A stretch of 64,000 bases of DNA from an uncultured delta proteobacterium (GTDB lineage Bacteria > Myxococcota > B64-G9): assembly GCA_963754925.1 (NCBI GenBank), contig CAVWHX010000004.1, positions 555,883 to 619,882 of the forward strand, in the 5' to 3' direction. The first letter of the stretch is position 1. Each line of letters begins with the position of its first letter. The translations under genes and the position numbers were made by a program. Shown one piece after another: positions 2,164 to 40,004 of this stretch. The notes under the pieces were generated by a model. That model saw nothing but the letters and a program-made list of their open reading frames with translations. It ran no database searches and was not told the DNA's origin.

Positions 2164-4833
2164 CTATTCTTTGCTCCAACGCTCAATCTGTGCAAACGCG
2201 CGATTCAGTTTTTCAAGCTTGTCGCGTGCCTCATCCAACTTGCTCCGTTCTTTTTCGATGATTTCGGCCGGCGCGCGTTCGGTAAAGGCCGGATTATTAA
2301 GCTTTTTGTCGGCGCGGGAGACATCGTCGCGGGCCTTCTGGATTTCCTTGCCGAGCCTGGCCCGCTCGGAATCAAAGTCGACAAGGCCGGCCAACGGCAC
2401 GCAGATCTCCAGTTCTCCGAGTACCGCAACCGCCGCCTGCTTAGGATGCGCGCCCGGCTCGCCCAAGTGCAATGCCGAAAGCCGCGCCAGGTGCATGATC
2501 GTGTCGCGATGGCGATCGAGGGTGGCCAGGAGCTGTCGGTCGCTACTCAGCAGGTGCGCCGTCAACGGTTTCCCGGGCGGGAGATTGCTCTCCCCGCGCA
2601 GATTCCTCACGCCGGTCACGGCAGAAATCACCCCATTGATTTCGTGCAGAGCTTCCGGATCATCGGGCAACGCGTCAGCGGTCGGCCAGTCGGCGTTAAT
2701 CAAAAATTCACTTTTTCGCTCGGTAAGCGGGAGCTTTTGCCAGAGTTCCTCGGTTACAAACGGAGTGAAGGGATGCAGCAGGCGCAGCGCCACATCCAGC
2801 ACGGTCAGAAGCGTGCGCTGGCACTCGGCGCGCGCGGCCGCCCCGGCGCGGCCGGCCAACACCGGCTTTACCAACTCAAGGTACCAATCGCAGAACTCAT
2901 GCCAGAAAAACCCATACAGCGTCGAAGCGGCATCGTTGAAACGGAAGTCTTGCAGCGCGGTCGTCACCTCGATGACGACCTGGCGGGTGCGGCTGAGAAT
3001 CCAACGGTCGTAGAGGCTGCGCTGCGTCGCTTGCGCAGCCGAGCACGGATCGAAATCGCCGAGGTTGAGCTCTGCAAAACGGGCGGCGTTCCAAATCTTG
3101 TTGATAAAATGGCGATAGCCCTCGACCCGGTCGGTACTGAGTTTTATATCGCGCCCCTGGGCGGCCAAGATCGCCAGCGTAAAGCGCAGCGCGTCCGCAC
3201 CCGTTTGCGCCGTGAGCGCGAGCGGATCGATCACGTTGCCCCTGGTCTTGGACATCTTGCGCCCCTCGGCGTCGCGCACCATGGCGTGCAGGAACACCGT
3301 TCGAAACGGCACATCGCCCATGAACTTCAACCCCATCATCAGCATGCGCGCTACCCAGAAAAAGATGATATCAAAGCCGGTCTCCATGACCGAGGTGGGG
3401 TAGTATTTTTTCAAAGTGGCGGTCTGCTCAGGCCAACCCATGGTGGAAAATGGCCACAGTGCCGAGGAAAACCATGTGTCCAGGACGTCGGGGTCCTGCG
3501 TAAGATCGGCCGAGCCACAGGCGGGGCAGCGCGCGGGGGGTTCACGGGCCACGATTACTTCGCCGCACGCACAGGTCCAGGCCGGAATGCGATGGCCCCA
3601 CCACAGCTGGCGCGAAATGCACCAATCGCGGATATTGTACATCCACTCATAGAAGGTCTTCTCCCAGCTCTGCGGTATAAACACGGTGCGGCCCGACTTG
3701 ACCGCCGCGATGGCGGGCTCGGCCAGCGGCTGCACACGCACGAACCATTGCTTGCTGAGCAACGGTTCAATGATCGTTTCGCACCGTTGGCAGTGGCTGA
3801 GCTCAACCTGGTAGTCTTTGATATCGGAGAGCAGTTCCTGCGCCTGTAACGCGGCGAGCACCCGCTCGCGGGCCTCGAAACGATCCAATCCGGCGAAGTC
3901 TTTCCCGGCCGCTTCGGTCATGCGCCCGTCAAAACCAATCACCGATAGCGAGGGCAACTGGTGCCGCCGGCCCGTCTCAAAATCGTTGAAGTCGTGCGCC
4001 GGGGTAACCTTGACGCAGCCGGTGCCAAACTCAGGGTCGACCAATTCGGCGTCCGCCACGACCGGGATACGGCGGCCGGTCAAGGGCAACTCGACCTCTC
4101 GGCCTATCAGATCGCGATAGCGGGGATCCTCGGGGTGAACCGCGAGGGCGGTATCGCCGAGCATGGTTTCGGGCCGGGTGGTGGCGACCGAGAGCCTGCG
4201 CGTGCTTCCCGGCACCGGATAATCAATGGTCCAGAGCTTTCCCGGCGTAGACTTGAGCGTCACCTCAAGATCGGACAGCGCCGTCTGACAGCGCGGACAC
4301 CAGTTTATCAGTCGGAGGTCACGATAAATCAGGCCTTCCTCATGGAGGCGCACAAAGACCTCGCGCACGGCTCGCGAGAGGCCGTCGTCCATGGTAAAGC
4401 GGGTGCGGCGCCAGTCGACCGAGGCTCCCATGGCCTGGGTCTGTTCGTTGATTCGGTTGCCGTGTTTTTCTTTCCACTCCCAAACCTTCTTCAGAAATGC
4501 CTCACGCCCGATCTGCAAACGGCTTACGCCCTCCTGGCCCAGCGCGCGTTCGACCACCAACTGGGTGGCTATCCCCGCGTGGTCGGTGCCCGGCAACCAG
4601 AGGGTGTTATAGCCGCTCATGCGCTTCCAGCGGGTCAGGATATCCTGGATGCTCAGAACCAGGGCGTGCCCAATGTGCAAGGTGCCCGTGATGTTCGGCG
4701 GCGGCAAAACGATCGAGAACGCCGGCCGCTGGTCGGCTTCGTTGGCATCGAAACAGCCTCGTTCTATCCAGATTTTTGACCAGTGCGGCTCAATTTCTTT
4801 CGGATCGTATTGCTTTGGTAGTTGCCTATCCAT
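2164..4833 (-). CDS. valS: valine--tRNA ligase
   Basis: PPPNITGTLHIGH, GTDHAGIATQ, KMSKT, DWCISRQLWWGHRIP, C-terminal coiled coil; GAAGGAG RBS before MDRQLP. Confidence 0.98.
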   Translation of the reverse strand: MDRQLPKQYDPKEIEPHWSKIWIERGCFDANEADQRPAFSIVLPPPNITGTLHIGHALVLSIQDILTRWKRMSGYNTLWLPGTDHAGIATQLVVERALGQEGVSRLQIGREAFLKKVWEWKEKHGNRINEQTQAMGASVDWRRTRFTMDDGLSRAVREVFVRLHEEGLIYRDLRLINWCPRCQTALSDLEVTLKSTPGKLWTIDYPVPGSTRRLSVATTRPETMLGDTALAVHPEDPRYRDLIGREVELPLTGRRIPVVADAELVDPEFGTGCVKVTPAHDFNDFETGRRHQLPSLSVIGFDGRMTEAAGKDFAGLDRFEARERVLAALQAQELLSDIKDYQVELSHCQRCETIIEPLLSKQWFVRVQPLAEPAIAAVKSGRTVFIPQSWEKTFYEWMYNIRDWCISRQLWWGHRIPAWTCACGEVIVAREPPARCPACGSADLTQDPDVLDTWFSSALWPFSTMGWPEQTATLKKYYPTSVMETGFDIIFFWVARMLMMGLKFMGDVPFRTVFLHAMVRDAEGRKMSKTRGNVIDPLALTAQTGADALRFTLAILAAQGRDIKLSTDRVEGYRHFINKIWNAARFAELNLGDFDPCSAAQATQRSLYDRWILSRTRQVVIEVTTALQDFRFNDAASTLYGFFWHEFCDWYLELVKPVLAGRAGAAARAECQRTLLTVLDVALRLLHPFTPFVTEELWQKLPLTERKSEFLINADWPTADALPDDPEALHEINGVISAVTGVRNLRGESNLPPGKPLTAHLLSSDRQLLATLDRHRDTIMHLARLSALHLGEPGAHPKQAAVAVLGELEICVPLAGLVDFDSERARLGKEIQKARDDVSRADKKLNNPAFTERAPAEIIEKERSKLDEARDKLEKLNRAFAQIERWSKE

Positions 4834-7013: not shown

Positions 7014-7271
7014 TCAGACGGTCGTGTTTTCGGAAGGTATGGCGCCGGTTTCATACGCGCGGATCAGGTATCCCAGGATGATCATGGAGGCGGCGTTCTC
7101 GACCACTTTGTGAGCGTCGGCCTCGATTGCCTGGCGAGCGTAATTGAACATGGCTGAAGCAAGCTCCTCGCCGACAACCGAACGAATGACATTCTGGAGC
7201 CGCTCAGGCTCCATACGGGAAAGTTCGGCGAGGAACAGCAGGGCAACGTCTTTCTTTTTATTTGGTTCCAT
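7014..7271 (-). CDS. small helical hypothetical protein
   Basis: 85-aa ORF with plausible protein-like composition in otherwise unoccupied space; no family recognised. Confidence 0.55.
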   Translation of the reverse strand: MEPNKKKDVALLFLAELSRMEPERLQNVIRSVVGEELASAMFNYARQAIEADAHKVVENAASMIILGYLIRAYETGAIPSENTTV

Positions 7272-7534
7272 GGCGCCACCGTATCAACTCGACCGGGGCA
7301 GGTCAATAGCCGAGCACCCCGCCCCGGATGACTGGTAGAAGAAAAAGATACAGATTCGTCAGAAACGACCTGGTCAGACTATCTAAACGACATATCCGTC
7401 GGTTGTTTCGTAACGACTGTAAAGCGGAGTATACCGCTGTTCGTTGTGAGTGTATCGCAGGAAGTCGATCCGACGCAATCGTCGGGGGCGAGGTGTACGG
7501 CTTTAGTACCTATCATTTCTCACCATGGCAACGG

Positions 7535-9526
7535 TTATGAGGAAGGTGCCGGCGTCGGCACGTTGTCGAAGCACAGCAATCCTTCAATTTCGCCGACGAT
7601 TTGGTCGTCGGTGAAGTTTTTGCCTTCGATGGCCGCGGACGGACAGCTGGCCACGCAGGTGCCGCAGCCGCGACACATGGTTTCGTCCACGCGGGCCTTT
7701 TTACGTTCCTCATCAAACGAGACCGCATGATACGGGCAAATATCGAGACAAGTGCGGCACCCTGAACATTGCTCGTCCTGAACATAGGCCGAAATCGATT
7801 CAAGCAGCACCTTTCCCTGCTGCAGGATGGTCAACGCGCCGGCTGCTGCGGCCGACGCTTGAGCCACCGTGTGGGGAATGTCTTTGGGCCCGGCGCAGGT
7901 CCCGGCGATGAACACGCACTCGTTGGGCGTGCCGACTGGGTTGAGCTTGGGGTGCTGCTCGATGAAGAAGCCATCTTTGTTGCGCGATACCCCAAACAAT
8001 CGGCCTACCTCGTCGGCGTCGGTGCGGGATTTGAGGCCATTGGCCAGGATGACCATATCGAGCGGAATGCGGCGTATAACGCCGGCCAAGGTGTCCTCGA
8101 CCTGCACTATCAACTTGCCCTTCTCGGTCGGGTCGCGCGCCTCGTTGCTGATCGAGGCCGCCTTGCCGCGCACAAAGCGCACGCCTTCATTCAACAACCG
8201 ATCGTAGAATTCCTCGTAGCCCTTCCCGACGCAGCGCATGTCGATATAAAAATTGTAGACCTCGGCATCGGAATGCTCGCGGATCAAGTGTGCGAACTTA
8301 AGCGAGTACATACAGCAGACACCCGAGCAATACGACTGATGGTGTCGATCCCGGCTGCCGACGCAGTGGATAATGCCGACCGCCTTGGGGTGCTGCCCGG
8401 TGCTGGTTACGATTTCGCCCTTGCTGAAGCCGCCGGCGTTGACCATGCGCTCGAACTCGAGGGCGGTATAGACGTCTTTATAGGTGCCATAGCCGTATCG
8501 TTGCATTTGGTGTGCGTCGAACATTTCGTGGCCGGTCGTCAAAATGATTGCGCCGACTTCAATTTCCTCGACCGTATCCCTTTGCTCGAAGTCGATGGCG
8601 TTCATCTTGCAAAATTTCTCGCACACTTTACACTTACCCTTGAGGAAGAAGTTGCAGGCGTTGCGATCGATCACCGGCTTGTTCGGCACGGCCTGCGGGA
8701 ACAGCGTATAGATCGCTTTGCGTTTGCCCTTGTTTTGCTCGAATTCGTTGTCGGCCTTAAACGGGCATTTTTCCTGACAGAGCCCGCAGCCGTTACATTT
8801 ATTGTAGTCGACGTAGGTAGCCTTATGGCGCACCTTCACCTTCAAGTTGCCGACGTACCCGCCGACCTCTTCGATCTCGCTATAGCTCATCAATTTGATA
8901 TTGGGGTGCTGGCCGACCGAGACCATTTTCGGGGTGAGGATGCACGCCGAACAGTCCAAGGTGGGGAAGGTCTTGTCGAGCATGGCCATATGTCCGCCGA
9001 TGGATTGACTGCGCTCGACCAAATAGGTTTTAAAGCCGGCGTTGGCGCACTGCAGCGCCGCCTGGATGCCGGCGATGCCGCCGCCCACCACGAGCACCGC
9101 CTGGGAGACCGAGACCTCGCATTCTGACAGCGGGCGCAGGAAACGCGCCTTGCCGCACGCGCCCGCCACCAACGACTTGGCTTTCTCGGTTGCAGCGGCG
9201 GTATCATCGGTGACCCATGAACACTGCTCGCGCAGGTTGGCCATATGCATGAGGTAGTGGTTGAGACCCGCCCGCGCGCAGGCCGACCGGAAGGTCTTTT
9301 CGTGCATCAGCGGCGAGCAGGAAGCCACCACGATTCGATTGAGTTCATGCTCTTTGATGTCCTGGCGGATCATCTCCTGCCCGGGCTCGGAGCACATAAA
9401 AACGTAGTCCTTTGAAACCACGACATTCGGCAAGGTGCGGGCATATTCTGCAACCGCCTTGACGTCCACCTTTCCGGCGATGTTCGAGCCGCAATGACAA
9501 ACATAGACGCCGATCCGAACTGACAT
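7535..9526 (-). CDS. hdrA: heterodisulfide reductase subunit A-like flavoprotein
   Basis: RIGVYVCHCG, ASCSP, REQCSWV, GGGIAG FAD motif, KTFPTLDCSACIL, HCVGSR, YCSGVCCMY, inserted and C-terminal 2x[4Fe-4S] ferredoxin domains; AAGGAG RBS. Confidence 0.93.
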   Translation of the reverse strand: MSVRIGVYVCHCGSNIAGKVDVKAVAEYARTLPNVVVSKDYVFMCSEPGQEMIRQDIKEHELNRIVVASCSPLMHEKTFRSACARAGLNHYLMHMANLREQCSWVTDDTAAATEKAKSLVAGACGKARFLRPLSECEVSVSQAVLVVGGGIAGIQAALQCANAGFKTYLVERSQSIGGHMAMLDKTFPTLDCSACILTPKMVSVGQHPNIKLMSYSEIEEVGGYVGNLKVKVRHKATYVDYNKCNGCGLCQEKCPFKADNEFEQNKGKRKAIYTLFPQAVPNKPVIDRNACNFFLKGKCKVCEKFCKMNAIDFEQRDTVEEIEVGAIILTTGHEMFDAHQMQRYGYGTYKDVYTALEFERMVNAGGFSKGEIVTSTGQHPKAVGIIHCVGSRDRHHQSYCSGVCCMYSLKFAHLIREHSDAEVYNFYIDMRCVGKGYEEFYDRLLNEGVRFVRGKAASISNEARDPTEKGKLIVQVEDTLAGVIRRIPLDMVILANGLKSRTDADEVGRLFGVSRNKDGFFIEQHPKLNPVGTPNECVFIAGTCAGPKDIPHTVAQASAAAAGALTILQQGKVLLESISAYVQDEQCSGCRTCLDICPYHAVSFDEERKKARVDETMCRGCGTCVASCPSAAIEGKNFTDDQIVGEIEGLLCFDNVPTPAPSS

Positions 9527-11081: not shown

Positions 11082-12704
11082 TTATGCCGCGGTCATTTCG
11101 TCAAGGATGTGTTCTGCGAGAGCCTGTGTCGTCAGATCCTCGAAGGCTAGCGGGACTTCACCGCTATTTGGCTGAACCGCCACGGTCACAACTTTCTTTC
11201 CTGCTTCGCCCGCGGCTTTGACCATGTCCGAAGCTGCATTGCGTACCATGCTGCCCGGGATGCGGCCGATGTTGTCGGTCAGGATGAGCACCACGCGGTT
11301 GTTGGCAGCGGCCTCGCGCCGAATTTCCATCGGCGATATGGTGTCAAAACCAAGGGTGACGCGAATGGGGTACGACGCTTCGAGAATCGCTCGCACCAAA
11401 CGCTGCCCGAGGCCCTGGTACTCCAACATCTTGCCGCCTGATACTAGCAACGCGACCGTATGGCCGAGGCGGTTGGTGATGCGGATCTTGCGCACCCAGC
11501 GCGGCAGTCCAGAAAGCGGTGCGGTGCGGAGCGTCTCGGCGGTCTGGGGCTGGAAGGCATCGTGCAGTATGTCAAGGATCTCGTTGTCGGCAAACGGCTC
11601 AACAGCGTAGAAAAAGATCTTCCGTGAACGATACGCGCCTTCGAGGTTGCCTCCGGTGGCGCCAACGACGATGATCTTTACCGCAGGGGCGGCGTTGTTG
11701 ACCTGGTCAACCATCTCGGGCCCGCGCTCGCCAAAAGCGGCTGCATCAAGAATCAGGGTGCGGGCCTGGCTATCGCGCAACGCGCCGAGCACGCCATCAA
11801 TAGTCGTTGCCGGATGCACCTGAACCCCGAGGTAGGCCAGTTGATTACGTTGCTCTTTAGCTTTGACCGCGTTGGCGTTGGCCAATACCACGTGGCGGGT
11901 CTTAGCGTACTTCATATCTTCGGAAAGATTCTCAGGCCGGACTCTAACCAACCAGCCTTCATGGCACGGATTGGCAAAAGCTTTACCCGGCGTCGTGGCA
12001 AGGGCGGTGTTGACCTCGACCACCTCGCCGCTGACCACCGCGGGGATGGAACGTCCCGGCTTACCGGTGCTCTTAATGGCCGCTAGTGGTAATCCCCGGT
12101 AGACCGTCTCGCCGATCTTGGGTAGTTTCACTGACTCCAGCTCGTTGCTCTCTTCGCTTGAGATGAAAGCGCCAAGACGCACCGAGCCGTCTTGGCCAAG
12201 CTGCACCCAACCGTGGTTAAGGAACCGATACTCATCGCTGAGCGGGCTCCAGGTCCCGGTGCCGGGAACAACACCAGGGGTTGTCACACTAACTGCTTTG
12301 GCAGCCGGCGCAGTAGTGCTAACGGCAGTGGCTTCCGCCGTCAACCGCTTGACCGCATCAGAGATTTCGGCCGGGGTGAAGGGCTTGGGAATGTAGTCGA
12401 CGGCTCCCAGCCGCATGGCCGCGGCGGCGTCCTGGATGCTCGAGTAACCGGTGATCATGATGATCGGGGCCTTGCGGTTGGTATTCCGGAATTGATGTAA
12501 AAACTCAAGGCCATCCATATCCGGCATCTTGACGTCAAGCAAGATGGCGGAGTAGTCATTGCCAGTAGCCAACTTTAGGCCCTCGCGGGAATCGGTCGTT
12601 GTCTCGACCTTATACCCTTGACCTTCGAAAATTCTCTGGCAGCTCTGGCACACAACCGGTTCATCATCAATTACCAAGAGTTTTGGTTGGGCATTGGCTT
12701 CCAT
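11082..12704 (-). CDS. response regulator fused to a glycine-cleavage-H-like domain and a second, degenerate receiver-like domain
   Basis: Receiver: LVIDDE, LLDVKMP, ITG, YIPKPF. GcvH-like: HGWV..DG.VRLG, LPKIG, VSGEVVEVN..L...P....NP..EGW. Further alpha/beta domain with LILDA. Confidence 0.8.
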   Translation of the reverse strand: MEANAQPKLLVIDDEPVVCQSCQRIFEGQGYKVETTTDSREGLKLATGNDYSAILLDVKMPDMDGLEFLHQFRNTNRKAPIIMITGYSSIQDAAAAMRLGAVDYIPKPFTPAEISDAVKRLTAEATAVSTTAPAAKAVSVTTPGVVPGTGTWSPLSDEYRFLNHGWVQLGQDGSVRLGAFISSEESNELESVKLPKIGETVYRGLPLAAIKSTGKPGRSIPAVVSGEVVEVNTALATTPGKAFANPCHEGWLVRVRPENLSEDMKYAKTRHVVLANANAVKAKEQRNQLAYLGVQVHPATTIDGVLGALRDSQARTLILDAAAFGERGPEMVDQVNNAAPAVKIIVVGATGGNLEGAYRSRKIFFYAVEPFADNEILDILHDAFQPQTAETLRTAPLSGLPRWVRKIRITNRLGHTVALLVSGGKMLEYQGLGQRLVRAILEASYPIRVTLGFDTISPMEIRREAAANNRVVLILTDNIGRIPGSMVRNAASDMVKAAGEAGKKVVTVAVQPNSGEVPLAFEDLTTQALAEHILDEMTAA

Positions 12705-12746
12705 GGTATGTTCCTTTCGTGGTTACGTTCCTCGATACTTATCTAT

Positions 12747-12763
12747 AGCATCGCTCATGCCAA
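12747..12763 (-). promoter_or_regulatory. putative sigma54 (-24/-12) promoter of the regulator-hdrCBA operon
   Basis: Minus strand TTGGCATGAGCGATGCT fits TGGCA-N7-TGC with correct spacing, about 40 nt above the start codon; AT-rich tract further upstream. Confidence 0.65.
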
Positions 12764-13174
12764 CGCTTGATATCTTGACCAAGACGCTGAATATCAAGTG
12801 TATTATCGTTATCATGTTGATTCTGATGTCAATCTTAATTAAGATCGATTTTTGAGTCAAAAATTAATAATAATACTTATATATCAATATATTATACTAA
12901 TAATTATATTTTCAGGTGGTGTATAGTAAAACTATACATTGTATGAATCGTGTTTAAAATTGGAAATGATGATTTCTTGATTGATAAGTCGATTTAATTT
13001 ATTGTTATTGAGCGGATACGGTTTTTCCGGGGGCGAGCGGAAGGAAAGCTCGGCATAAGCTCATCGGGTCTCCTTCTGATTGACATCACCTCGATCGAGG
13101 TTTAAATTAGACAAATAAGATCCAGCGCATGGTTATAACCACAGCGCGACGCTGGATATAAGGAAGGAGTAACC

Positions 13175-13399
13175 GTGCCAATTTACGAATATACTTGCAA
13201 AAAATGTAAACACGATTTTGAGGTATTGCTTCTATCCAGCGATCAAAAAGTCATGTGTCCAAAGTGCAACGCCAAAAACCTAAAGAAACATTTTTCGGTC
13301 TTTGCTCATAAAAGCGATTTTGGCTTCACCCCGAGTACGGGCGGAGGATCCGCCTGCGGTAGTTGCAGTTCGTCAAACTGCTCGGGTTGTAAGGTATAA
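13175..13399 (+). CDS. FmdB-family zinc-ribbon regulatory protein
   Basis: MPIYEYTCKKC..FE...CPKC, Cys-rich tail CGSCSSSNCSGC; AGGAAGGAG RBS. Confidence 0.88.
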   Translation: MPIYEYTCKKCKHDFEVLLLSSDQKVMCPKCNAKNLKKHFSVFAHKSDFGFTPSTGGGSACGSCSSSNCSGCKV

Positions 13400-14913: not shown

Positions 14914-15430
14914 ATGCCTTACCAACAACCATCGAACCATGCCCCGGTAGCGTTGGTGTTGGTTACGCCCGAGATTCCGGCCAACACCGGCAATATAGTA
15001 CGTCTGTGCGCGGCGGCAGCCGTGCCGCTGCATCTGGTCGAACCATTGGGGTTTTCCCTGAGCGACCGCCTGGTTAAAAAGGGCCGGCCTGGATTACTGG
15101 CGTCACTGTCAGTTGACGACACACCTCACCTTCGAGTCGCTGGAGGATCAACACCCGCAAACACGCTTTTTCTTTCTTTCGGCTCGGGCCGAGCGCTCAA
15201 TTTATGAGTTAGCTCTGCGTTGGGGTGATTTTTTGGTGCTTGGCCCCGAAGCGCAGGGACTGTCAAGCCGCTTCTTGTCGCAACGCAACCGGAGGAAAAA
15301 CCTGGTCGGTATCCCCATGCCCGGCAATGTTCGCAGCCTAAATCTATCCACTGCCGCCGGGATTGTGGTGTACGAAGCGCTCCGCCAGCTTGGAGCGTTG
15401 GAGAAAACACATGCCCATCCTCACGGTTGA
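14914..15430 (+). pseudogene. trmL: tRNA (cytidine(34)-2'-O)-methyltransferase TrmL, frameshifted as written
   Basis: PEIPANTGNIVRLCA...LGFSL in one frame; RAGLDYW...GPEAQGL...IPM..VRSLNLSTAAGIVVYEALRQ in the +1 frame; removing one A from the A5 run at 15076-15080 restores LVKRAGLDYW. Confidence 0.8.
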
Positions 15431-16395
15431 CCATAATGCAGACGGGTTGAGGCTCGACAAGTTCCTGCGCACGGTTTTGCGAGGAATGCCGCTCAGCCAC
15501 ATCTACAAGCTTCTCCGCACCCGGAAGGTGCGGGTCAACGGTAGACGCGCAAAGGCCGACCGGGTGCTGGCCGACGGCGATCGGGTGCTTCTGCACATGA
15601 GCACGGATCAGTTTACTCAAGATACGCGCCGACCCAAGCGCGTTTCTCGGAATGGACTTCGGCGTTATGTATGAAGACGAGCACCTGTTGGTCGTAGCCA
15701 AGCCGCCCTTCCTCCCGGTCCACCCCGGAGCCGGGCATGAAGGAAATTCGTTGATTGACCAGGTGCACGCCTATCTTGAGGTGAAGAACACTCCCGGGGG
15801 GTTTCGGCCGGCGCTTGCCCACCGTCTCGATCGCGATACTTCGGGTCTGCTGTTGATAGGCAAGAGCGCCGTGGCGCTGCGCCGACTCAATCGAATGCTA
15901 CACACCGGAGAGATTGCGAAATACTATCTCGCTCTGGTGATGGGCGCGCCACAGCCGATGTCTGGGCAGTGGGAACTTGAGGTCATGCGCCGCGACCGAC
16001 CGGGGTTTGCCCGTGACGAGCCCCGTGGACGCAAGGATAAACCCGGCCGTACCGCGTACCGAGTGGCCACCGAACGCCACATCAAAGACCGTGCACAGGG
16101 TACCCTCGCGGTCAGCCTCTTGGTGCTGCACCTACTTACCGGAAGGACCCATCAAATACGCAGCCATCTTTTCCAAGTCGGCCACCCCGTAGCCGGAGAT
16201 CCGCGCTACGGCGATAGCGATTTCAACCTTTTGATGTCAGAAAAATACAACCTCCACCGTCAGTTCCTACATGCTTTCAAACTTGAGCTTACGCACCCGG
16301 TAACTGGTGGGAAGCTGCAGCTGGTGGCGCCCTACCCTGCCGATCTTGAGCCCATTACTTCTAAACTAAAGCTCGGAATTCCGGCAGCGTCTTAG
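15411..16395 (+). pseudogene. RluA/RluC-family pseudouridine synthase with S4 domain, split by a frameshift
   Basis: S4 domain (RLDKFL, IYKLLR..KVRVNG) ends at 15674; catalytic domain (YEDEHLLVVAKP, HRLDRDTSG, TGRTHQIR, GDPRYG, FLHA) is in the +1 frame from 15652. Confidence 0.8.
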
Positions 16396-16460
16396 CAACA
16401 TAACCGATTTGCTCTTACAATTATGTAATAGACCATTTCAGCTAATACAACGATTTTGTT

Positions 16461-17555
16461 TCACACCATCTGAAAGTGATAATCTACTTCCACTAGACAC
16501 CCTTTAGTTCCAGGCCGAAACGAGTCAGTTTGCCGACCAGTTATATTGCTTTCCTCTTGATGAATCAGCTTGACCTTTCGTTGCGAAAAAATACTTGTTG
16601 CATGCAGCCCTTTACCCATCCTTGCTGGTGAAAGCCCTTTCCCACCTAATCGTATTACTATGCTCGCCTTCTTAGTAAGCACCTGACCTAGAACTCGCCA
16701 CATATCCGATATCAAATCCCAATATTTTTCTACGCACTCATGCCTGTCGTCTTTGGAAACAAGCCCATAAGTTGGATAAGGCATCCCTCCGAGAAACCAA
16801 AGACGAAGCCATTGATCCTCCTCGTAGTTCGTTACATTCAGATATGGTGGCGATGTCACCGCACATCGAATTGGCCTATCGAATGCTTCCGTTTTTCGGG
16901 GTAGCTCCCGCATATCGGTCAGAAGTACCACGCCTCGTTTTTTTGGTGGTTCGCTCTCGAATCGGAAGGCGGCACGCTTTCTAATTATGTCGAAGGAATC
17001 TCGTTCCGGCGCTGTTAGACCTTTCTCCTCCCAATATTTGATAGAGTATGCCGGCTTTGTGCTTATAGTGCGTGGCATTTGATTGCTTAGGTAGGCATTG
17101 GATTTCTGACTTTCCCCGTGGAGAGAACCAAGCACTAGAGCGGCGATGAAGCAATCTACTTCAGACCGACGCCAGTTTAATGATTCGCGAAGGAAAAGCA
17201 GCTGCCGGAAGGTCCTTGGATGGAAAGCATAATAGAAGAACCTCGGCAGGGCCTTTCTTTGCGGCTCCCATTCGTCGCTCTGGAAACGCTTTTCGAGGAT
17301 CGTGATTCTTCTTCGAATATCTGTCAGAGAAGGAGGGGTTACCTTGGCCTTCGTAATGCAATATGCTACGGGGTTTATATCACAAGCAATGGCCTCACGG
17401 TTCATAAGTAACGCTTGGAAAGGCGTGGTGCCGCGACCACAAAAAAGATCGAGGACCATCTCTCCAGGTTTTGTTAAAATACCAATCCATTTTTCAGCAA
17501 ATGACTCCGGAAACATCGCAAAATACGGACAAATAGAGTGGAACCTATGGCGCAT
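16461..17555 (-). CDS. amino (N4-C/N6-A) DNA methyltransferase, alpha-type motif order
   Basis: SAM motif VLDLFCGRGTT followed by DINP, catalytic VTSPPY downstream; N-terminal PYFAMFP. Confidence 0.85.
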   Translation of the reverse strand: MRHRFHSICPYFAMFPESFAEKWIGILTKPGEMVLDLFCGRGTTPFQALLMNREAIACDINPVAYCITKAKVTPPSLTDIRRRITILEKRFQSDEWEPQRKALPRFFYYAFHPRTFRQLLFLRESLNWRRSEVDCFIAALVLGSLHGESQKSNAYLSNQMPRTISTKPAYSIKYWEEKGLTAPERDSFDIIRKRAAFRFESEPPKKRGVVLLTDMRELPRKTEAFDRPIRCAVTSPPYLNVTNYEEDQWLRLWFLGGMPYPTYGLVSKDDRHECVEKYWDLISDMWRVLGQVLTKKASIVIRLGGKGLSPARMGKGLHATSIFSQRKVKLIHQEESNITGRQTDSFRPGTKGCLVEVDYHFQMV

Positions 17556-17556
17556 T

Positions 17557-18519
17557 CTAGGTCTCTCTAATCTTCTTAAGAATATAGTTAGACCACGTCA
17601 CCCACTTTTTCGAAAGGGACCTATCTTCTTCGAAGACTAGTGCTGCAATACGGCACCGATCGAAAAGAATACCGCCATGCACGCATGTTTGAAACCAGTT
17701 CTTTTTATCTACCCTGTGCGGAACAAAAAAAGCTCGAACAGGCCACACGCTTGGTCTATCTGCCATCCATAATGTGCACCAATCCGTAGTCTGCGGTAAT
17801 TCAGTCACTTTGCGATCCCAGTTATGTCCAGTGGCACACTGGCCAAAAGCGATCAGTTTGCCCTGCCGTCGGTCCTCAAATTCACGCCAGGCAACTACAT
17901 CAAGTTTTCCATCCTTTTGATCGGGAAGCTTGGGGCGACCTGTGTGGTGTCCTTTACCTTCACCCATATGACTGCAAAGCTGGTTAAGCGCCGCCGCAAA
18001 TCCTTTAGGTTCAAGTCTGCGCGGGAATCCGAAAACTATTGATCGCACTCTCGGGCTAGGCCCCCCAAGGTATGCTTCAGCTGCTTTGGCGCATATCTCT
18101 TCGAAAATTTTCTCACCATCCAAGTCGTTCGGACCTACATCCTTACCGAACCATGAAAGCAGCGCCAGGAAGGTGTAAAGGCTCTTTTCCGGGTCCTTAT
18201 GGTAAGCGACTGTACTCTCGCTTATGATAAAAGGATATCGGCTAGCATCACAACCACAGGACCTGTTTCGGTCATCCAATTCAGCAAAAGCGCCTTCTGC
18301 TAGTGCTTCCTGTCCAGGATCACCCTCTTCTGGCTCTTTTTTGTCTTTGTCTTTGTCTTCGCCTTCTACTTCCTCACTAGCACAAGCAAGGTTGAGTTCA
18401 CGCATATACTCGTAAATTGAAAAGCTACCCGCCGGACTTCGAAGTGCTGATAGTTCAAGGAAATCTGCGTGGTCTTCCACTGGGTCTGCTGCTGAAGGCA
18501 AGGTATCTACTTCTATCAT
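17557..18519 (-). CDS. putative restriction-endonuclease-fold (PD-(D/E)xK variant) protein
   Basis: FEEICA helix, KDGKLDVVAW and FGQCATG motifs resemble the D...QxK-type REase core; tightly coupled to the MTase (1-nt gap). Confidence 0.6.
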   Translation of the reverse strand: MIEVDTLPSAADPVEDHADFLELSALRSPAGSFSIYEYMRELNLACASEEVEGEDKDKDKKEPEEGDPGQEALAEGAFAELDDRNRSCGCDASRYPFIISESTVAYHKDPEKSLYTFLALLSWFGKDVGPNDLDGEKIFEEICAKAAEAYLGGPSPRVRSIVFGFPRRLEPKGFAAALNQLCSHMGEGKGHHTGRPKLPDQKDGKLDVVAWREFEDRRQGKLIAFGQCATGHNWDRKVTELPQTTDWCTLWMADRPSVWPVRAFFVPHRVDKKNWFQTCVHGGILFDRCRIAALVFEEDRSLSKKWVTWSNYILKKIRET

Positions 18520-18527
18520 TACAGACT

Positions 18528-19661
18528 TTACCCCTTGGACTTGTGTTTCTCTGAGGCCTTGTTTTCAGCCATCTCTCTCATTTCTTCATAGATCTTACCC
18601 GCAATTTGGTTGATATCTTTGGCTTTCTGAAGCAAATCCGAGTCGCCCCGGTAACCAGTAATAATCACTCCTCTGGCCTCTTTGAGTTTCTGCTCGGCCA
18701 GGACCATTGCTTCCCGCAGAAGCCGTTCATCTCCTCGACTTGCCTTCAATGAGGTTTCTAATGGTAATCCTGCACGGAGCGCTGCGATTCCGTTATGGCT
18801 CCGAATGACCTCGTCGAGATGTCGAAGATCCGGATTCTGCGTGCGAACGACAGGCTCCTTCTCCTGCTTCTTGCTACCGTAAAGCCACAAACATAGCTCG
18901 CCAAGGTTGCTCAACTTGCTCTTGGGCACAGGGTCAGGTTTGTATCCCTCTTCCGATTTTAGTCCCAGAAACTCCTGAATCCCTCCGTAACCAAGACCAG
19001 TCCAGAAATGAGAATAGGCAAAACGGGTGTTCCACCTGTCGTCACGATCGAAGACACCAGTCTTCTCTGCTTGTTCTAGTACCATGAGTCCTCGGTAAAG
19101 CCTTGTCACCGTGTCATGACGATCGCCAATTGTGTATGCGATTTTTTTAAGGGGCACTTTGTAATCGTTGTGGACTCTCGCAATGTATTTTGCTTTGGCA
19201 ATGGAGTCCCAATCTTGCGGACCATTGACATGCTTGAATCCGATGTACTGCCAAACGTCCTGGCGACTACACTTGATGACCGGAAGCTCCTTAAGTTTAT
19301 CTAATTCTGCTTTGTTCAGGTCTGGTATGCCCACCGCACCTATCCTTGAACGGAGGCCTTTTTCGTTGATTAGGAGCATCACTGCGGCTAAGCGCCTGTT
19401 ACCCTCAACCACAACAAGTCTCCCACCTTCATTGACGGCAAATAATTCCTCGTGCGGCCAATAGCCATTTGTGGCAATCGAGTCCACAAGTTCATTGACC
19501 GCACGTTCCTTCCACAGGACCCGTAAAATATCAGCTTGTTGGTCAATAGAAAGCGACAATCCAGCCATTCTGGGATTAGTTGGGTCGAGATAGAGATCAG
19601 CAGTTTTCACTGGCTCTGCTTGGGGAAAGGCTTGAGGCTTCCCGTTGCCTTTTTTTACCAT
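18528..19661 (-). CDS. ParB/sulfiredoxin-fold N-terminal domain protein
   Basis: LYLDPTNPR, ELVDSIATNG, VVVEGNRRLAA motifs; helical C-terminal region. Confidence 0.75.
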   Translation of the reverse strand: MVKKGNGKPQAFPQAEPVKTADLYLDPTNPRMAGLSLSIDQQADILRVLWKERAVNELVDSIATNGYWPHEELFAVNEGGRLVVVEGNRRLAAVMLLINEKGLRSRIGAVGIPDLNKAELDKLKELPVIKCSRQDVWQYIGFKHVNGPQDWDSIAKAKYIARVHNDYKVPLKKIAYTIGDRHDTVTRLYRGLMVLEQAEKTGVFDRDDRWNTRFAYSHFWTGLGYGGIQEFLGLKSEEGYKPDPVPKSKLSNLGELCLWLYGSKKQEKEPVVRTQNPDLRHLDEVIRSHNGIAALRAGLPLETSLKASRGDERLLREAMVLAEQKLKEARGVIITGYRGDSDLLQKAKDINQIAGKIYEEMREMAENKASEKHKSKG

Positions 19662-19835
19662 ATAATAATTCCTTATCCTAAAGAACTAGTCCTTGGCCAC
19701 ATGAACTCAATTACGTTAGCTGCTTCATCTTGTTTAATATTCAATAGACCACTCACCAATAACTATGTCAACTGAATGCTTCCAGCACAAGATAGCACAT
19801 CTGATACGATCCATTGAACGGGTACACACCTGCGT

Positions 19836-21158
19836 TCAGATTTCCTTGCCGAGCTCTTCCTCTTCTTCGTGATCGGCAATCTCGATGACGCGATCCCCCT
19901 GGCTATCGGCCGCCGGCAGTTCCTGCACCTTGCGCAGTTTGCGCTCAATCGCCCGGCTGCGCGTAGCTGCTTCCCCAACGACGTTGCTTGCCTCCTGCAA
20001 CTTCTTCTGAACTTTATCAATCACTCCGCCAAACTTACCGAATTCGCCCTTGACCTCCTCAAGCACTTTCCAAACCTCACTGGAACGCCTTTGGATCGCG
20101 AGCGTCCGGAACCCGGTCTGCAGGCTGTTGAGCACCGCGGCGAGCGTCGTGGGCCCCGTCAGCAGCACGTGGTAGTCACGCTGGAGCAGTTCGAGCAATC
20201 CGGGCCGGCGCAGCACTTCGGCATACAGCCCTTCGGTCGGTAGAAACATCAGGGCAAAGTCGGTGGTGTTGGGTGGATCGAGATATTTATCGCGAATGTC
20301 TCGGGCATAACCCTTAATACACGCCTCCAGTCGCCGGGTCGACTCGTCAACCAGGCCAGCATTACCTTTTTCGGCGGCGTCGATCAACCGCTGGTAATCC
20401 TCCTGGGGAAACTTCGCGTCGATCGGCAGCCAAACCACCTGGCCTTCGCATTCGCTGCGGCCGGGCAGCTTGATGGCGTACTCGACCCGCTCGGAGCAAC
20501 CACCCTTGGTAGCCACGTTCTGCCCGTACTGATCCGGGGCGAAGATTTGCTCGAGCAGGTTGCCCAGTTGGATCTCTCCGAAGGTGCCGCGAGTCTTGAC
20601 GTTGGTCAGCACTTTTTTGAGATCCCCCACCCCGGCGGCCAGTGACTGCATCTCGCCCAATCCCTTGTGGACTTGCTCGAGTCGCTCGCTGACCAGCCGG
20701 AACGAATCGCTCAAGCGCTTCTCCAAAGTGCCTTGGAGTTTCTCATCCACGGTCTTACGCATCTCTTCGAGCTTCTTGGTGTTGTCCTCCTGTAAGGCCA
20801 GAAGACGCGCCTCGACGGTCGCTTTGAGCGTCTCCCCCCGTCCCTCCATGCTCCGGCTCATTTCTCCGAGAATACGTAGAACCGAGTCGTTGAAACCTTT
20901 GAGGGTGACGAGCACCTCCTCCCGCAGCTGCTTGAAGCTTCCGCCAAGTTCTTCGCGAAGGGCGCGCGATTGGCGATCGGCCTCTTCTCGAGCCTGGGAG
21001 GCCCGTTCACCGATCGCGCCTTCGATGCGCTCGAGGTCGCGTGCGTTGCTGTCGAGCCGAGAACCAATCTGAGAAAGCTCCTTTGACGGCAACCGCAGCA
21101 GGATCGCAACCAACAATCCAACCAGGACAACCAAAAGGATGACTGAAACGATGCTCAT
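19836..21158 (-). CDS. rmuC: DNA recombination protein RmuC
   Basis: N-terminal TM helix, coiled coil, KTRGTFGEIQL, LPIDAKFP, TTDFALMFLPTEGLYAE, GPTTL; start uncertain (21158-21197). Confidence 0.92.
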   Translation of the reverse strand: MSIVSVILLVVLVGLLVAILLRLPSKELSQIGSRLDSNARDLERIEGAIGERASQAREEADRQSRALREELGGSFKQLREEVLVTLKGFNDSVLRILGEMSRSMEGRGETLKATVEARLLALQEDNTKKLEEMRKTVDEKLQGTLEKRLSDSFRLVSERLEQVHKGLGEMQSLAAGVGDLKKVLTNVKTRGTFGEIQLGNLLEQIFAPDQYGQNVATKGGCSERVEYAIKLPGRSECEGQVVWLPIDAKFPQEDYQRLIDAAEKGNAGLVDESTRRLEACIKGYARDIRDKYLDPPNTTDFALMFLPTEGLYAEVLRRPGLLELLQRDYHVLLTGPTTLAAVLNSLQTGFRTLAIQRRSSEVWKVLEEVKGEFGKFGGVIDKVQKKLQEASNVVGEAATRSRAIERKLRKVQELPAADSQGDRVIEIADHEEEEELGKEI

Positions 21159-21288
21159 AACGTCCAACACGAGAAACCTTCCTATGCGTATCAGCATTCA
21201 ACCGGTATCATCGAGTGGCATTATAGCTGCATTTGATTTTTTGCATATCGATTTGATGATTAGGCCTACGAATGTTGCAAGCCGCTGG

Positions 21289-37248: not shown

Positions 37249-39125
37249 GCGAGACTCGTAAACCCAGTTATGATCCGCAGTGGCAGGAGAAGTATCGTGA
37301 TATGCTTGCCACACCCGAGCAAGCAGTGCAAAAAATCCGTCCCGGCCAGCGCGTTTTCATCGGCACCGGTTGCGCCCAACCGCAAGAACTTGTGCGGGCG
37401 CTCACCGCTCGTTCGATCGAGCTGACCGATACACAAATAGTGCACCTGCTGACGCTCGGCGATGCGCCCTACGCCCACAAGGAGCTTACCCACAATTTCT
37501 CCGTGAACAGTTTCTTCATTGCCGATAATGTCCGTGACGTTATCCAAGAAGGCCTGGGAGACTACACGCCGATTTTTCTCTCGGACATTCCGCGTCTGTT
37601 CGCTTCGGGCCAGTTGCCGCTTGATGCCGCCTTGATACAGGTCTCCCCGCCCGACGAGCGCGGATGGTGCAGCCTGGGAATCTCGGTCGACATCGTCAAG
37701 AGCGCGGCGGAAAACGCCGCGTTGGTTATCGCGCAGGTCAACCCCCAGATGCCCCGCACCCTGGGCGATAGTCTGCTCAATATCCAGGATTTTGATCTGT
37801 GTGTGCCGGTTGATCTGCCGCTGCTCGAAGCCAGGCCGGCCGTACCCGACGAGGTCTCGCGTCAGATTGCCATTCATGTCGCCAGTCTGATCGAAAATGG
37901 GGCCACGTTGGAGCTCGGTATCGGCCGCATCCCCCACAGTGTCTTGGAGTATCTGAAAGACCGAAAAGATCTGGGCATCCACACCGAGATGCTCTCCGAT
38001 CCCATCATTGACCTGATCGAATCCGGGGCGGTTACCGGGGCCCATAAATCGGTTGACCGCGGCAAGATCGTGGCCAGCTTTTGCCTGGGCACCCGCAAAC
38101 TCTACGATTACATCGACAATAACCCGCTCTTTTCCTTTCATCCGACCGAATATGTCAACGATTCTTTCTTGATCGGCCAGCAACATAAGATGGTGGCGGT
38201 CAACATGGCCCTTGAAATCGATCTCACCGGCCAGGTGTGCGCCGACTCGCTGGGCAGCAAGTTCTTTTCCGGAATCGGCGGGCAGGTGGACTTCAATAGA
38301 GGTGCGGCCCGCTCGGAAGGCGGCAAACCCATCGTCGCCCTTCCGTCCACCGCGAAAGGCGGCACTATCTCTCGAATCGTATGCCAGCTCAGCCCCGGCG
38401 CCGGGGTGGTGACCACCCGCGGCAGCGTGCACTATGTGGTGACGGAATACGGCGTGGCGTATCTCCATGGCAAGAACGTTCAGGAGCGCGCGCTTGCCTT
38501 GATCAGTATCGCTCACCCGGATTTTCGCGCCGAGCTGCTCAAGCGGGCGATCGAGGCCAAGTACCTGCGCCCCGAACTTTCCGACATCGAGGATCGCATT
38601 TGGGTTGGGCCGCCGGAACTCCGCACAACGTATTTGCTCGACAACGGTACGCAGATCAATTTCAGGCCGATTCATCCCACCGACGAACCGGCGATGAAGG
38701 ACTTGTTCTACGCTCTTTCACGCGAGTCGATCTACCGCCGTTTCATGGCTCACCTCAAACGGGTCTCGCACAAGCAGGTTAAGAATTTCGTCTATGTCGA
38801 CCACCGCACCGAGGTGTCAATCGTGGGCACCGTGCCCGAGGCGTACGGCGAGGAGATCATCGTGGTCGGCGGCTACTACCTCGATCCCAAGACCAATCGC
38901 GCCGAGGTGGCTTTCACCGTGCGCGACGACTGGCAAAACAAAGGGATTGGTTCGTTCCTGCTGCGTTACTTAATCACCATCGCGCGGAGCAACGGCATCG
39001 CCGGTTTTACTGCCGAGGTGCTGCGCGAGAACAGGCCCATGCAAGCGGTATTCAACAAAAGTCCCTGCAAGGTCAAAAGCTTCCTCACCAGCGACGTCTA
39101 TAGCTTTGAGCTGGAGTTCGCATAG
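37245..39125 (+). CDS. acetyl-CoA hydrolase/4-hydroxybutyrate CoA-transferase fused to a C-terminal GNAT acetyltransferase
   Basis: VSPPDERG, LELGIG.IP, catalytic GIHTEM, SGIGGQVDF; GNAT part RPIHPTD, AEVAFTVRDDWQNKGIG, VLRENRPM. Confidence 0.9.
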   Translation: MSETRKPSYDPQWQEKYRDMLATPEQAVQKIRPGQRVFIGTGCAQPQELVRALTARSIELTDTQIVHLLTLGDAPYAHKELTHNFSVNSFFIADNVRDVIQEGLGDYTPIFLSDIPRLFASGQLPLDAALIQVSPPDERGWCSLGISVDIVKSAAENAALVIAQVNPQMPRTLGDSLLNIQDFDLCVPVDLPLLEARPAVPDEVSRQIAIHVASLIENGATLELGIGRIPHSVLEYLKDRKDLGIHTEMLSDPIIDLIESGAVTGAHKSVDRGKIVASFCLGTRKLYDYIDNNPLFSFHPTEYVNDSFLIGQQHKMVAVNMALEIDLTGQVCADSLGSKFFSGIGGQVDFNRGAARSEGGKPIVALPSTAKGGTISRIVCQLSPGAGVVTTRGSVHYVVTEYGVAYLHGKNVQERALALISIAHPDFRAELLKRAIEAKYLRPELSDIEDRIWVGPPELRTTYLLDNGTQINFRPIHPTDEPAMKDLFYALSRESIYRRFMAHLKRVSHKQVKNFVYVDHRTEVSIVGTVPEAYGEEIIVVGGYYLDPKTNRAEVAFTVRDDWQNKGIGSFLLRYLITIARSNGIAGFTAEVLRENRPMQAVFNKSPCKVKSFLTSDVYSFELEFA

Positions 39126-39205
39126 TCTTGGCGTTTAGGTTCACTCTCAGGCCGGTTCTCTTGAGGCTATAAGAAACGTATCTGAAAAATATTACTCTGA
39201 ACAAG

Positions 39206-39934: not shown

Positions 39935-40004
39935 ATAATTCGGATAGCAGAGAAACTTTTTTCCAGCAACTCTTTCGAGCAAAGAAAATATCGTGCGGTA
40001 TTTT

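Follow-up and report, generated by a model that had tools for sequence, protein, structure and literature searches.

A widespread cassette of a ParB/KorB-like protein, a candidate nuclease and an exchangeable DNA methyltransferase: a probable restriction-modification variant

The cassette and its three genes

This study concerns a cassette of three genes in a 64,000-nucleotide stretch of DNA from an uncultured delta proteobacterium (assembly GCA_963754925.1, contig CAVWHX010000004.1, positions 555,883 to 619,882 of the forward strand), referred to below as the window. A preliminary description, made from the letters alone, had noticed three co-oriented, tightly packed genes and proposed them as a candidate defence system; the coordinates and junctions of the open reading frames (ORFs) bear out this layout, and all the motifs quoted for the three genes are present. 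Following up this observation across related loci, we find that the trio looks like a widespread, so far undescribed restriction-modification variant. The genes, numbered along the minus strand, are the following:

18528-19661, minus strand: gene 1, ParB/KorB/Noc-like, ORF of 377 amino acids
17557-18519, minus strand: gene 2, nuclease candidate, ORF of 320 amino acids
16461-17555, minus strand: gene 3, stand-alone DNA amino-methyltransferase, ORF of 364 amino acids

The TAA stop codon of gene 1 is followed after 8 nucleotides (nt) by the ATG of gene 2, and a single nucleotide separates the gene 2 stop from the ATG of gene 3. Judged by their homologues, all three are real genes and not chance ORFs, because gene 2 has 638 relatives among protein clusters (E ≤ 1e-3) and a profile search with gene 1 recovers 1022 cluster representatives (E ≤ 1e-30).

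Gene 1 encodes a ParB/KorB/Noc-like protein

The gene 1 protein carries the motifs LDPTNPR (residues 24-31) and VEGNRRL (85-91). Its N-terminal ParB domain, of the nucleotide-binding type, holds DxxNPR at 26-31, which we take to be the Box I motif, and EGNRR at 86-90. A central helix-turn-helix (HTH) lies at about residues 171-200, and the C-terminus is formed, according to the structural model and the alignment, by two long helices (301-336 and 341-376), after which comes a basic tail. The AlphaFold2 model, built from an alignment of 37 homologues from related loci, has a predicted local distance difference test (pLDDT) score of 90.9. Searched with Foldseek against the PDB, it returned 20 matches at E ≤ 1e-3, every one of them a ParB, KorB or Noc protein, which substantiates the ParB fold previously read from the motifs. 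The alignments span 210-277 columns and include the N-terminal domain and the HTH together; several of the matched structures are bound to cytidine diphosphate or to CTPγS, and the top match is KorB, titled "transcriptional repressor" in the PDB. A profile search against PDB sequences found Helicobacter pylori Spo0J (4umk, E 0.0032), with G87-N88-R89-R90 of gene 1 aligned to its G-E-R-R.

No family in Pfam or NCBIfam reached threshold (GmrSD_N, E 0.097; TIGR00180 parB_part, 0.0086). In PADLOC, gene 1 matches 22 PD-Lambda-5_A profiles through its N-terminal part only (best 1.2e-15, residues 21-175), and the candidate model PDC-M38A matches residues 51-331 (1.5e-14). Among the copies that cover each position, conservation is close to complete: D26, N29 and R31 in 74/74 and P30 in 73/74 (alanine in one); E86, G87, N88, R89 and R90 in 76/76; H144 in 76/76 and N146 in 75/76. 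The same holds for the HTH, with G179, D180 and T184 in 77/77 and R187 in 75/77, and for the region after it, with S217, H218, Q275 and P277 in 78/78 rows and N276 in 77/78. The accessible text of a survey of the ParB fold describes binders of cytidine, adenosine and guanosine triphosphate (CTP, ATP and GTP) and gives no rule for predicting the nucleotide from sequence (bioRxiv 10.1101/2025.10.10.680097).

Some relatives of gene 1 depart from this architecture. In a natural fusion (P0145, 663 amino acids; a cluster of 3 members on 3 contigs), a Dam-like D12 methyltransferase at residues 9-246 precedes a full gene 1 homologue at 294-659; it is the only methyltransferase-gene 1 fusion cluster among the matches listed (150 representatives). 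Three long relatives (P0180, P0248 and P0264) have N-terminal extensions of 157-184 amino acids, and two others (P0243 and P0244) have different C-termini; no Pfam domain was found in any of these extra parts.

Gene 2 encodes a nuclease candidate

Gene 2 carries the motifs IFEE (138-141), QKDGKLDVVAW (201-211) and AFGQCATG (224-231). It combines an N-terminal helical domain (about residues 1-110) with a C-terminal restriction-endonuclease-like core that holds E140, D203, D207, Q227-C228-A229 and K237. The protein has no match in Pfam, NCBIfam or PADLOC (in PADLOC, 0 families at E ≤ 0.1), no PDB sequence was usable as a match for it, either as a single sequence or as a profile, and every source name seen among its relatives is "hypothetical protein." Its AlphaFold2 model has a pLDDT of 88.5. 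The best Foldseek match in the PDB is MspJI (E 3.6e-3, probability 0.99, template modelling (TM) score 0.25), a weak match confined to the generic nuclease core, followed in the list by HindIII, BstEII, Card1, FokI, NgoMIV, AgeI and BamHI. In the viral structure library BFVD, the top matches include several "Restriction endonuclease" and Mrr entries. Most of the leading structural matches are restriction endonucleases, but the fold call is weak by itself, because neither structure library gives a match at E ≤ 1e-3. A search of the ESM Atlas returned only the family's own unnamed clusters and then HaeII (0.81) and BsobI (0.79), which serve as leads only.

A closer examination of conserved residues is more informative. 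D203, D207, Q227, C228 and R288 occur in 81/81 copies, and E140 in 79/81, with aspartate in the other two. In the model, D207 starts a predicted strand and Q227-C228-A229 lies in the strand that follows. Position 229 is lysine in 14 of the 81 copies, giving the canonical Q-x-K, and precisely those 14 are without K237; the other 67 have alanine, threonine or glycine at 229 and keep K237, so that K229 and K237 are mutually exclusive in 81/81. Because the two lysines replace each other reciprocally, D207...Q227-C-(K229 or K237) forms a convincing pattern for a putative PD-(D/E)xK-type centre with a relocated catalytic lysine. This residue pattern is a stronger argument for a nuclease than the fold matches. 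The restriction-endonuclease fold claimed in the preliminary description is therefore upheld in part, by the active-site residues and not by structural matches at E ≤ 1e-3, and the model is consistent with gene 2 as a candidate restriction-type nuclease of no described family. Fused gene 2 proteins were not found among proteins longer than 560 amino acids, which is weak evidence.

Gene 3 and a second family of methyltransferases

In gene 3, motif I (FCGRGT, residues 38-43) is N-terminal and motif IV (SPPY, 235-238) is C-terminal, with about 190 residues between them. Matches to Pfam PF01555 (N6_N4_Mtase, 1.4e-15, with the C-terminal part of the profile on residues 11-65) and to PADLOC MTase_II (PDLC03325, 3.9e-31) agree with the amino-methyltransferase assignment made earlier from the motifs, and the best 25 of its 58 PADLOC matches are all methyltransferase models. 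All 49 gene 3 homologues that adjoin gene 2 relatives have FxGRGT, and 48 of them have SPPY. The PDB sequence matches include the N4-cytosine methyltransferase 8s9m (3.1e-4), M.MboIIA and M.PvuII. The SPPY motif is more typical of N4-cytosine enzymes. The target of gene 3 would be an amino group, of either N4-cytosine or N6-adenine, since the PDB matches cover motif I only and include enzymes of both kinds; for N4-methylcytosine, SPPY is only suggestive.

In 26 loci, this enzyme is replaced by a Dam-like methyltransferase (PF02086, DPPY/DPPF). The SPPY and Dam-like families share the motif I region only (hhalign, residues 19-99, probability 90). By this comparison, they are two unrelated families that are exchangeable beside the gene 1-gene 2 pair.

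Conservation of the arrangement

One genome per species was scanned, yielding 176 gene 2 relatives, and 80 loci were kept (given below as L numbers). They span Planctomycetota, Acidobacteriota, Actinomycetota, Chloroflexota, Pseudomonadota, Myxococcota, Verrucomicrobiota and other phyla. In 77/80 loci, gene 2 is immediately preceded by a gene 1 homologue; of the three exceptions, two are cut by a contig end (L010 and L056) and one is a gene 2 remnant (L045). At the usual junction in related loci, the stop of gene 1 and the start of gene 2 overlap by 4 nt. A methyltransferase adjoins the pair in 75/80 loci, of the SPPY type in 49 and Dam-like in 26. The SPPY-type gene follows gene 2 in 49 of the 80 loci. 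The Dam-like gene, found in 26 of the remaining 31, adjoins either the upstream end of gene 1 or the downstream end of gene 2, in either orientation; the two types never occur in the same locus. In one further locus (L023), a contig end prevents the methyltransferase neighbour from being judged. The co-occurrence of the trio, put forward in the preliminary description as a check, is thus found across many phyla, and the comparison goes beyond that description in two respects: what is conserved as the core is the pair of genes 1 and 2, and the methyltransferase is exchangeable between two unrelated families.

This exchange has happened repeatedly. On a gene 2 tree of 73 rows, with 8 partial copies left out, the methyltransferase type changes 11 times, and well-supported branches require at least 9 of these changes; the mean for shuffled types is 22.7. 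Sister pairs with different methyltransferase types are L020/L029, L050/L055, L063/L064 and L061/L072. The tree does not track taxonomy.

Internal stops occur in six loci, in gene 1 (L040 and L068), gene 2 (L047, L057 and L066) and gene 3 (L052). In two sister loci from Dehalococcoidia (L066:4386-4880 and L077:4332-4835), both counted among the 26, only the C-terminal half of a Dam-like methyltransferase is left. In L066, gene 2 is moreover interrupted by an in-frame stop, whereas L077 looks intact. These loci may represent a decaying lineage or a pair that is tolerated without its methyltransferase.

Predicted binding of the gene 1 and gene 2 proteins

A model of the gene 1-gene 2 complex scored 0.65, and the best of 3 controls scored 0.00. 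Of 80 solved complexes, 58 came up to this score, as did 2 of 110 mismatched pairs, counts that calibrate it only roughly because our own alignments fed the complex model. The runs share at least 72% of contacts, with a partner pLDDT of at least 80. The predicted interface joins residues 150-153, 210-221 and 270-276 of gene 1 to the N-terminal helices of gene 2 (14, 35-39, 68-82 and 99-102), and its gene 1 side includes the strongly conserved S217, H218 and Q275 (78/78 each) and N276 (77/78). The model supports the view that the two proteins bind each other. To our knowledge, there is no solved complex of this kind, so it is unlikely that the model merely recalls a known structure.

Genomic surroundings, borders and mobility

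The features around the cassette in the window are listed here:

19836-21197, minus strand: RmuC gene, upstream neighbour of the cassette (Pfam PF02646, E 4.5e-74)
15652-16395, plus strand: RluA-type pseudouridine synthase gene, the other flank (Pfam PF00849, E 1.3e-25)
19662-19835, minus strand: intergenic region from the rmuC stop to the gene 1 start, presumed cassette promoter (174 nt)
19738-19751, strand not applicable: left copy of a direct repeat, TATTCAATAGACCA (14 nt, imperfect, outside the cassette)
16422-16435, strand not applicable: right copy of the direct repeat, TATGTAATAGACCA (26 nt beyond the gene 3 stop)

The cassette forms a stretch of about 3.3 kb with a lower content of guanine plus cytosine (GC) between rmuC and the pseudouridine synthase gene. 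As the preliminary description had noted, it is more AT-rich than its surroundings beside rmuC: GC is 0.46-0.50 over 16250-19999 against 0.57-0.61 in the flanks (15000-16249 and 19750-20999). The dip is real, yet it is not the only one in the window, because other 1-kb stretches are equally low. These lie at 12-15 kb, 39-40 kb, 52-53 kb and 54-55 kb. GC is 0.35-0.48 at 12500-13250, 39001-40000, 52001-53000 and 54001-55000 and about 0.55-0.61 elsewhere in the window; such stretches may have been acquired separately or may simply be intergenic. An ORF of 74 amino acids at 13175-13399 (plus strand), with two CxxC pairs and a tail rich in glycine, serine and cysteine, resembles a small zinc-ribbon protein.

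No tRNA gene was found in the whole 64-kb window, and no integrase, transposase or tRNA near the cassette borders, where the only feature is the 14-nt repeat. Its two copies, detected in a repeat search, are identical at 12/14 positions and bracket the cassette at a spacing of 3316 nt. Only this position is suggestive; the repeat may be an insertion footprint and is taken as nothing firmer because many such repeats arise by chance in the same 3.6 kb.

The word AAGGA lies 8 nt ahead of the gene 1 ATG. A consensus scan of 19662-19835 found no sigma-70-like site, and promoter and terminator scans gave counts no higher than the shuffled expectation. In the upstream regions of related loci, each 8-mer occurs in at most 6 of 68, and no palindrome recurs. 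The promoter in 19662-19835 is presumed, since the scan found no sigma-70-like site and no 8-mer is common to related loci. By eye, a GGATG(T/C)(A/G)GCG-like word can be seen some 45-55 nt ahead of the start of gene 1 in L001-L006, which are close Planctomycetota relatives; it occurs neither in the window's own gene 1 upstream region nor in distant loci and could be a lineage-specific promoter or operator element.

Several of the related loci lie near defence genes, such as Wadjet JetABC (L023), genes for DUF499 proteins (L039, L053 and L058), Eco57I-like enzymes (L038 and L048), HsdR (L071) and a NotI-like endonuclease (L074). One clear defence island (L036) holds a Type IIG enzyme and a Lamassu/MADS-like ATPase, and a DruE-like gene also stands beside some loci. 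Mobility genes nearby include integrases (L055 and L072) and a transposase (L057). In the gammaproteobacterial metagenome-assembled genome behind L074 (3070-5974), the NotI-family endonuclease (PF12183, 2.3e-38; 3942-4763) is encoded between a Dam-like methyltransferase (3070-3945) and the gene 1 homologue, which places two nuclease candidates beside one methyltransferase.

A cultured organism, Vibrio campbellii LJC015 (NZ_CP050465.1), also carries the cassette (L081:3228-8275), as a series of integrase, homologues of genes 1 and 2, a convergent Dam-like methyltransferase and a CI-type repressor. Its gene 1 homologue aligns to the gene 1 alignment with an hhalign E of 6e-54. The replicon, of 2.06 Mb, is listed as "plasmid" and is nearly unannotated, and the locus suggests carriage on a prophage-like or integrative element. 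An unverified phage scaffold (L082:1512-8267, MT835579.1) has a gene 1-gene 2-like pair after a 691-amino-acid protein with a Z1 domain; downstream are a second ParB_N-like gene (7179-8267, minus strand) and then an ORF of 381 amino acids. The Z1 domain is named in the accessible text of a paper on the CglI H subunit (PMC5861437). The lower GC of the cassette than of its flanks, the departure of the gene 2 tree from taxonomy and the integrase/CI setting in Vibrio campbellii together point to a cassette that has probably moved horizontally.

Restriction-modification as the probable function

We consider it probable, with moderate confidence, that the cassette is a restriction-modification variant whose restriction enzyme consists of a ParB-like switch (gene 1) together with a nuclease (gene 2). 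The restriction-modification type is suggested because a methyltransferase constantly stands next to a nuclease-like gene, the cassette is compact and appears horizontally moved, and the gene 2 tree ignores taxonomy. The restriction enzyme is read as a gene 1-gene 2 complex because gene 1 is an obligate, translationally coupled and predicted physical partner with invariant nucleotide-pocket residues. In the mechanism that we propose, gene 3 would methylate host DNA at an amino group, and gene 2 would be a PD-(D/E)xK-type endonuclease whose N-terminal helical domain docks on the region of gene 1 after the HTH. Gene 1 would bind DNA through its HTH, would use bound nucleoside triphosphate as a switch, like its structural relatives, and might also form a closed clamp that slides; DNA without the methyl mark would then be cut by the complex of genes 1 and 2. 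We infer nuclease activity, methylation-sensitive cleavage and a defence role for the cassette. Nucleotide binding or hydrolysis, clamping and sliding would be properties of gene 1 under the modelled fold, and it is from this fold only that gene 1 may be seen as a nucleotide-gated clamp on unmethylated DNA, delivering or licensing the nuclease. Only two methyltransferase families are seen, they alternate between closely related copies of gene 2, and the HTH of gene 1 shows little variation; the simplest view is therefore that the family would recognize a single conserved target, open to protection by either methyltransferase.

Several observations weigh against this proposal. In some loci the pair looks intact although the flanks searched, of about 6 kb, yielded no methyltransferase (L030, L065 and L073) or only a truncated one (L077); because of them, the pair may be tolerated without an adjoining methyltransferase, unless another elsewhere in the genome covers it. 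For gene 2, no Foldseek match in the PDB or BFVD reached E ≤ 1e-3, TM scores were at most 0.27, and no nuclease family was matched by sequence in Pfam, NCBIfam, PADLOC or PDB sequences. The 14 Q-C-K sequences form one clade on the gene 2 tree, so the lysine swap represents a single evolutionary event. No fused form of gene 1 and gene 2 was found, which is again weak evidence. The glutamate of the ParB G-E-R-R motif matters for CTP hydrolysis, and gene 1 has N88 in its place; because of this replacement, the protein may bind nucleotide without hydrolyzing it, or may use none. The family is nearly absent from phage and plasmid collections, with one distant match in each (the phage scaffold and the Vibrio campbellii locus described above), and many neighbours of the loci are housekeeping genes, as in this window. 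The defence context is modest: among 128 immediate-flank ORFs of 37 SPPY-type loci (41 ORFs from 12 further loci were left out), 10 ORFs in 8 loci match PADLOC at E ≤ 1e-10, as raw counts without a genomic background, and several of the matches are to generic kinase or helicase models. The association with defence islands that the preliminary description had anticipated is accordingly seen in some neighbours and is modest overall.

Other explanations assign a different part to gene 1. In an ordinary Type II restriction-modification system, it could serve only as a transcriptional controller, an oversized KorB-like counterpart of the C proteins, which we regard as unlikely. The arrangement would suit such a role, with gene 1 directly upstream of gene 2 and usually overlapping it, since a controller gene just upstream of and overlapping the restriction gene is the usual arrangement for small C proteins; the best structural match, KorB, is a transcriptional repressor by its PDB title, the HTH is highly conserved, and gene 2, at 320 amino acids, is big enough for DNA recognition of its own. 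A pure controller role is nevertheless made less likely by the predicted interface, which uses invariant residues outside the HTH (0.65 against 0.00 for the control), by the strict conservation across phyla of nucleotide-pocket motifs that a plain repressor would not need, and by the lack of a conserved operator-like word upstream of gene 1 in 68 loci; the methyltransferase-gene 1 fusion also speaks against it. That fusion, with its Dam-like methyltransferase, would fit better an assembly like those of Type III or Type I, in which the methyltransferase gives specificity and genes 1 and 2 form a docking motor or switch with a nuclease module. We judge this reading distinctly unlikely, yet it is the main alternative to the inference of one conserved target, and the methyltransferase exchanges among close gene 2 relatives, at least 9 in number, would be easy if the methyltransferase held the specificity. 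In addition, PD-Lambda-5_A profiles (about 430-580 positions), which match only the ParB-like N-terminus of gene 1, belong to a system that contains a methyltransferase according to the accessible text of its description (PMC9519451). Against such an assembly, the Dam-like genes are often encoded on the strand opposite to the pair or placed at its other end, as would be expected for independent enzymes; no common docking surface is evident, because the families share motif I only, and the fusion is confined to one cluster among the matches listed (150 representatives).

A role outside defence, in maintenance, partition-like functions, addiction or site-specific DNA processing for a small mobile cassette, with the methyltransferase as an epigenetic or addiction partner, seems remote to us. 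Most immediate neighbours are indeed housekeeping genes, intact pairs without an adjoining methyltransferase exist (L030, L065 and L073), and the ParB fold is best known, by PDB titles, from partition and gene silencing; yet the window offers no ParA-like partner or plasmid context, some loci stand beside Wadjet, Type IIG, Type I HsdR, DUF499, DruE-like or Lamassu-like genes, and an adjoining methyltransferase in 75/80 loci together with a nuclease-like partner is a signature of restriction-modification. It is very improbable that gene 1 acts as a modification sensor of the SspE or GmrSD kind, reading the methyl mark on self or foreign DNA and gating the nuclease accordingly. DUF262 domains of the ParB superfamily sense modified DNA in GmrSD and SspABCD-SspE, as the accessible text of PMC12065111 describes. 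The best structural match of gene 2 is also the nuclease domain of the modification-dependent MspJI, but this resemblance is weak and does not extend beyond the generic nuclease core, and neither gene 1 nor gene 2 has an HNH domain. Moreover, gene 1 falls outside the DUF262 proteins (its GmrSD_N score is 13.2 bits, E 0.097, where the cut-off is 33.2), and its motif is EGNRR, not the DGQQR of DUF262 proteins.

Returning to the restriction enzyme proposed here, a bolder and more doubtful version, which we advance only tentatively, would make the products of genes 1 and 2 a restriction enzyme of a new, nucleotide-gated class. In this version, a ParB-type clamp would load at unmethylated sites, close on CTP or another nucleoside triphosphate, and slide while carrying or activating a PD-(D/E)xK nuclease, and either methyltransferase would block loading. 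If true, communication between distant sites would run through a ParB switch and not through a helicase-like motor.

Relation to known systems

Type II restriction-modification resembles the cassette in its stand-alone amino-methyltransferase beside a restriction-endonuclease-like gene, in its compact, lower-GC, moved form and in the methyltransferase that is sometimes divergent or convergent. Unlike Type II systems, the cassette has a 377-amino-acid protein of ParB/KorB fold as an obligate, coupled and predicted physical partner of the nuclease, and gene 2 matches no known restriction enzyme family by sequence. The pairing in 77/80 loci and the predicted binding suggest that gene 2 depends on gene 1, unlike a lone Type II endonuclease. 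Closest in layout are CglI and NgoAVII, three-gene systems in which a methyltransferase and a nuclease are accompanied by a separate partner protein, which uses nucleotide and has to bind the nuclease (PMC4267653, PMC5737866 and PMC5861437). Their partner is a DEAD-Z1 ATPase, whereas that of the cassette has a ParB fold; the nuclease here is PD-(D/E)xK-like, and no sequence relation was found. A Pfam scan of genes 1-3 found no helicase domain of the DEAD-family N/H subunit kind.

PD-lambda-5 is a two-gene system with validated anti-phage activity (Vassallo et al. 2022, PMC9519451). Only the ParB-like N-terminal domain of gene 1 is shared with PD-Lambda-5_A, the matches taking in about the first 170 positions and lying within about positions 5-200 of profiles 430-580 positions long, and there is no counterpart of PD-Lambda-5_B, because gene 2 matches no PADLOC model and the best 25 of the 58 gene 3 matches are all to methyltransferase models. 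Membership was rejected, as the cassette has neither a full-length PD-Lambda-5_A homologue nor a PD-Lambda-5_B homologue.

With the ParB, KorB and Noc clamps, gene 1 shares the nucleotide-binding N-terminal domain and HTH, the arginine-rich GxRR motif and the basic tail; it differs in having GNRR in place of GERR, an extra conserved region that meets the nuclease in the model, and two long C-terminal helices. An identity as a partition ParB was rejected, as there is no ParA and no plasmid context and the flanks are rmuC and the pseudouridine synthase gene. No ParA family appeared among the Pfam-scanned flank ORFs of related loci either.

Domains of the ParB superfamily (DUF262) are coupled to nucleases in the defence systems GmrSD, BrxU and SspE and in NsnA of Menshen (PMC12065111 and PMC12839542). 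The cassette shares with these the combination of a ParB-superfamily nucleotide-binding domain, a DNA-binding domain and a nuclease; the published systems, unlike it, belong to the DUF262 branch, are mostly fused to HNH or act via an ABC ATPase, depend on or sense modification, and are described as lacking a methyltransferase of their own. Gene 1 falls in the canonical ParB/KorB branch and scores below the GmrSD_N threshold, and neither it nor gene 2 has a Pfam match to a C-terminal HNH (DUF1524) nuclease. GmrSD/SspE membership was rejected, there being no DUF262-type ParB domain and no HNH. DndB, a stand-alone ParB-superfamily regulator of phosphorothioate modification (PMC10853773), is similar in size to gene 1 and is likewise encoded with a DNA modification system. 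The cassette differs in having no dnd genes, in methylation as its modification and in a gene 1 that is coupled to the nuclease and not to the modification genes; Dnd membership was rejected because the defining parts are missing.

No description of a trio of ParB-like, restriction-fold and methyltransferase genes was found in Pfam, NCBIfam, PADLOC v2, the source names seen or the openly accessible papers searched. The preliminary description had likewise been unable to assign a named system, and none in Pfam, NCBIfam or PADLOC fits.

Significance

CTP switches with the ParB fold have been described in chromosome partition (ParB), in nucleoid occlusion (Noc) and in the silencing of plasmid genes (KorB). 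What is known of the ParB superfamily in defence comes mostly from its DUF262 branch, in fusions with HNH nucleases. If confirmed, a canonical ParB/KorB-like protein as the obligate partner of a restriction-type nuclease, with protection by a swappable methyltransferase, would represent a new coupling of nucleotide state to DNA cleavage in restriction-modification, and the cassette links the field of ParB nucleotide switches to restriction enzymology. The family is not rare, with 176 gene 2 relatives in the species representatives scanned, 638 gene 2 clusters and 1022 gene 1 representatives, and the PADLOC models of defence genes miss its nuclease candidate. The repeated alternation of two unrelated methyltransferases beside the same pair offers a natural experiment on the co-evolution of restriction specificity and protection.

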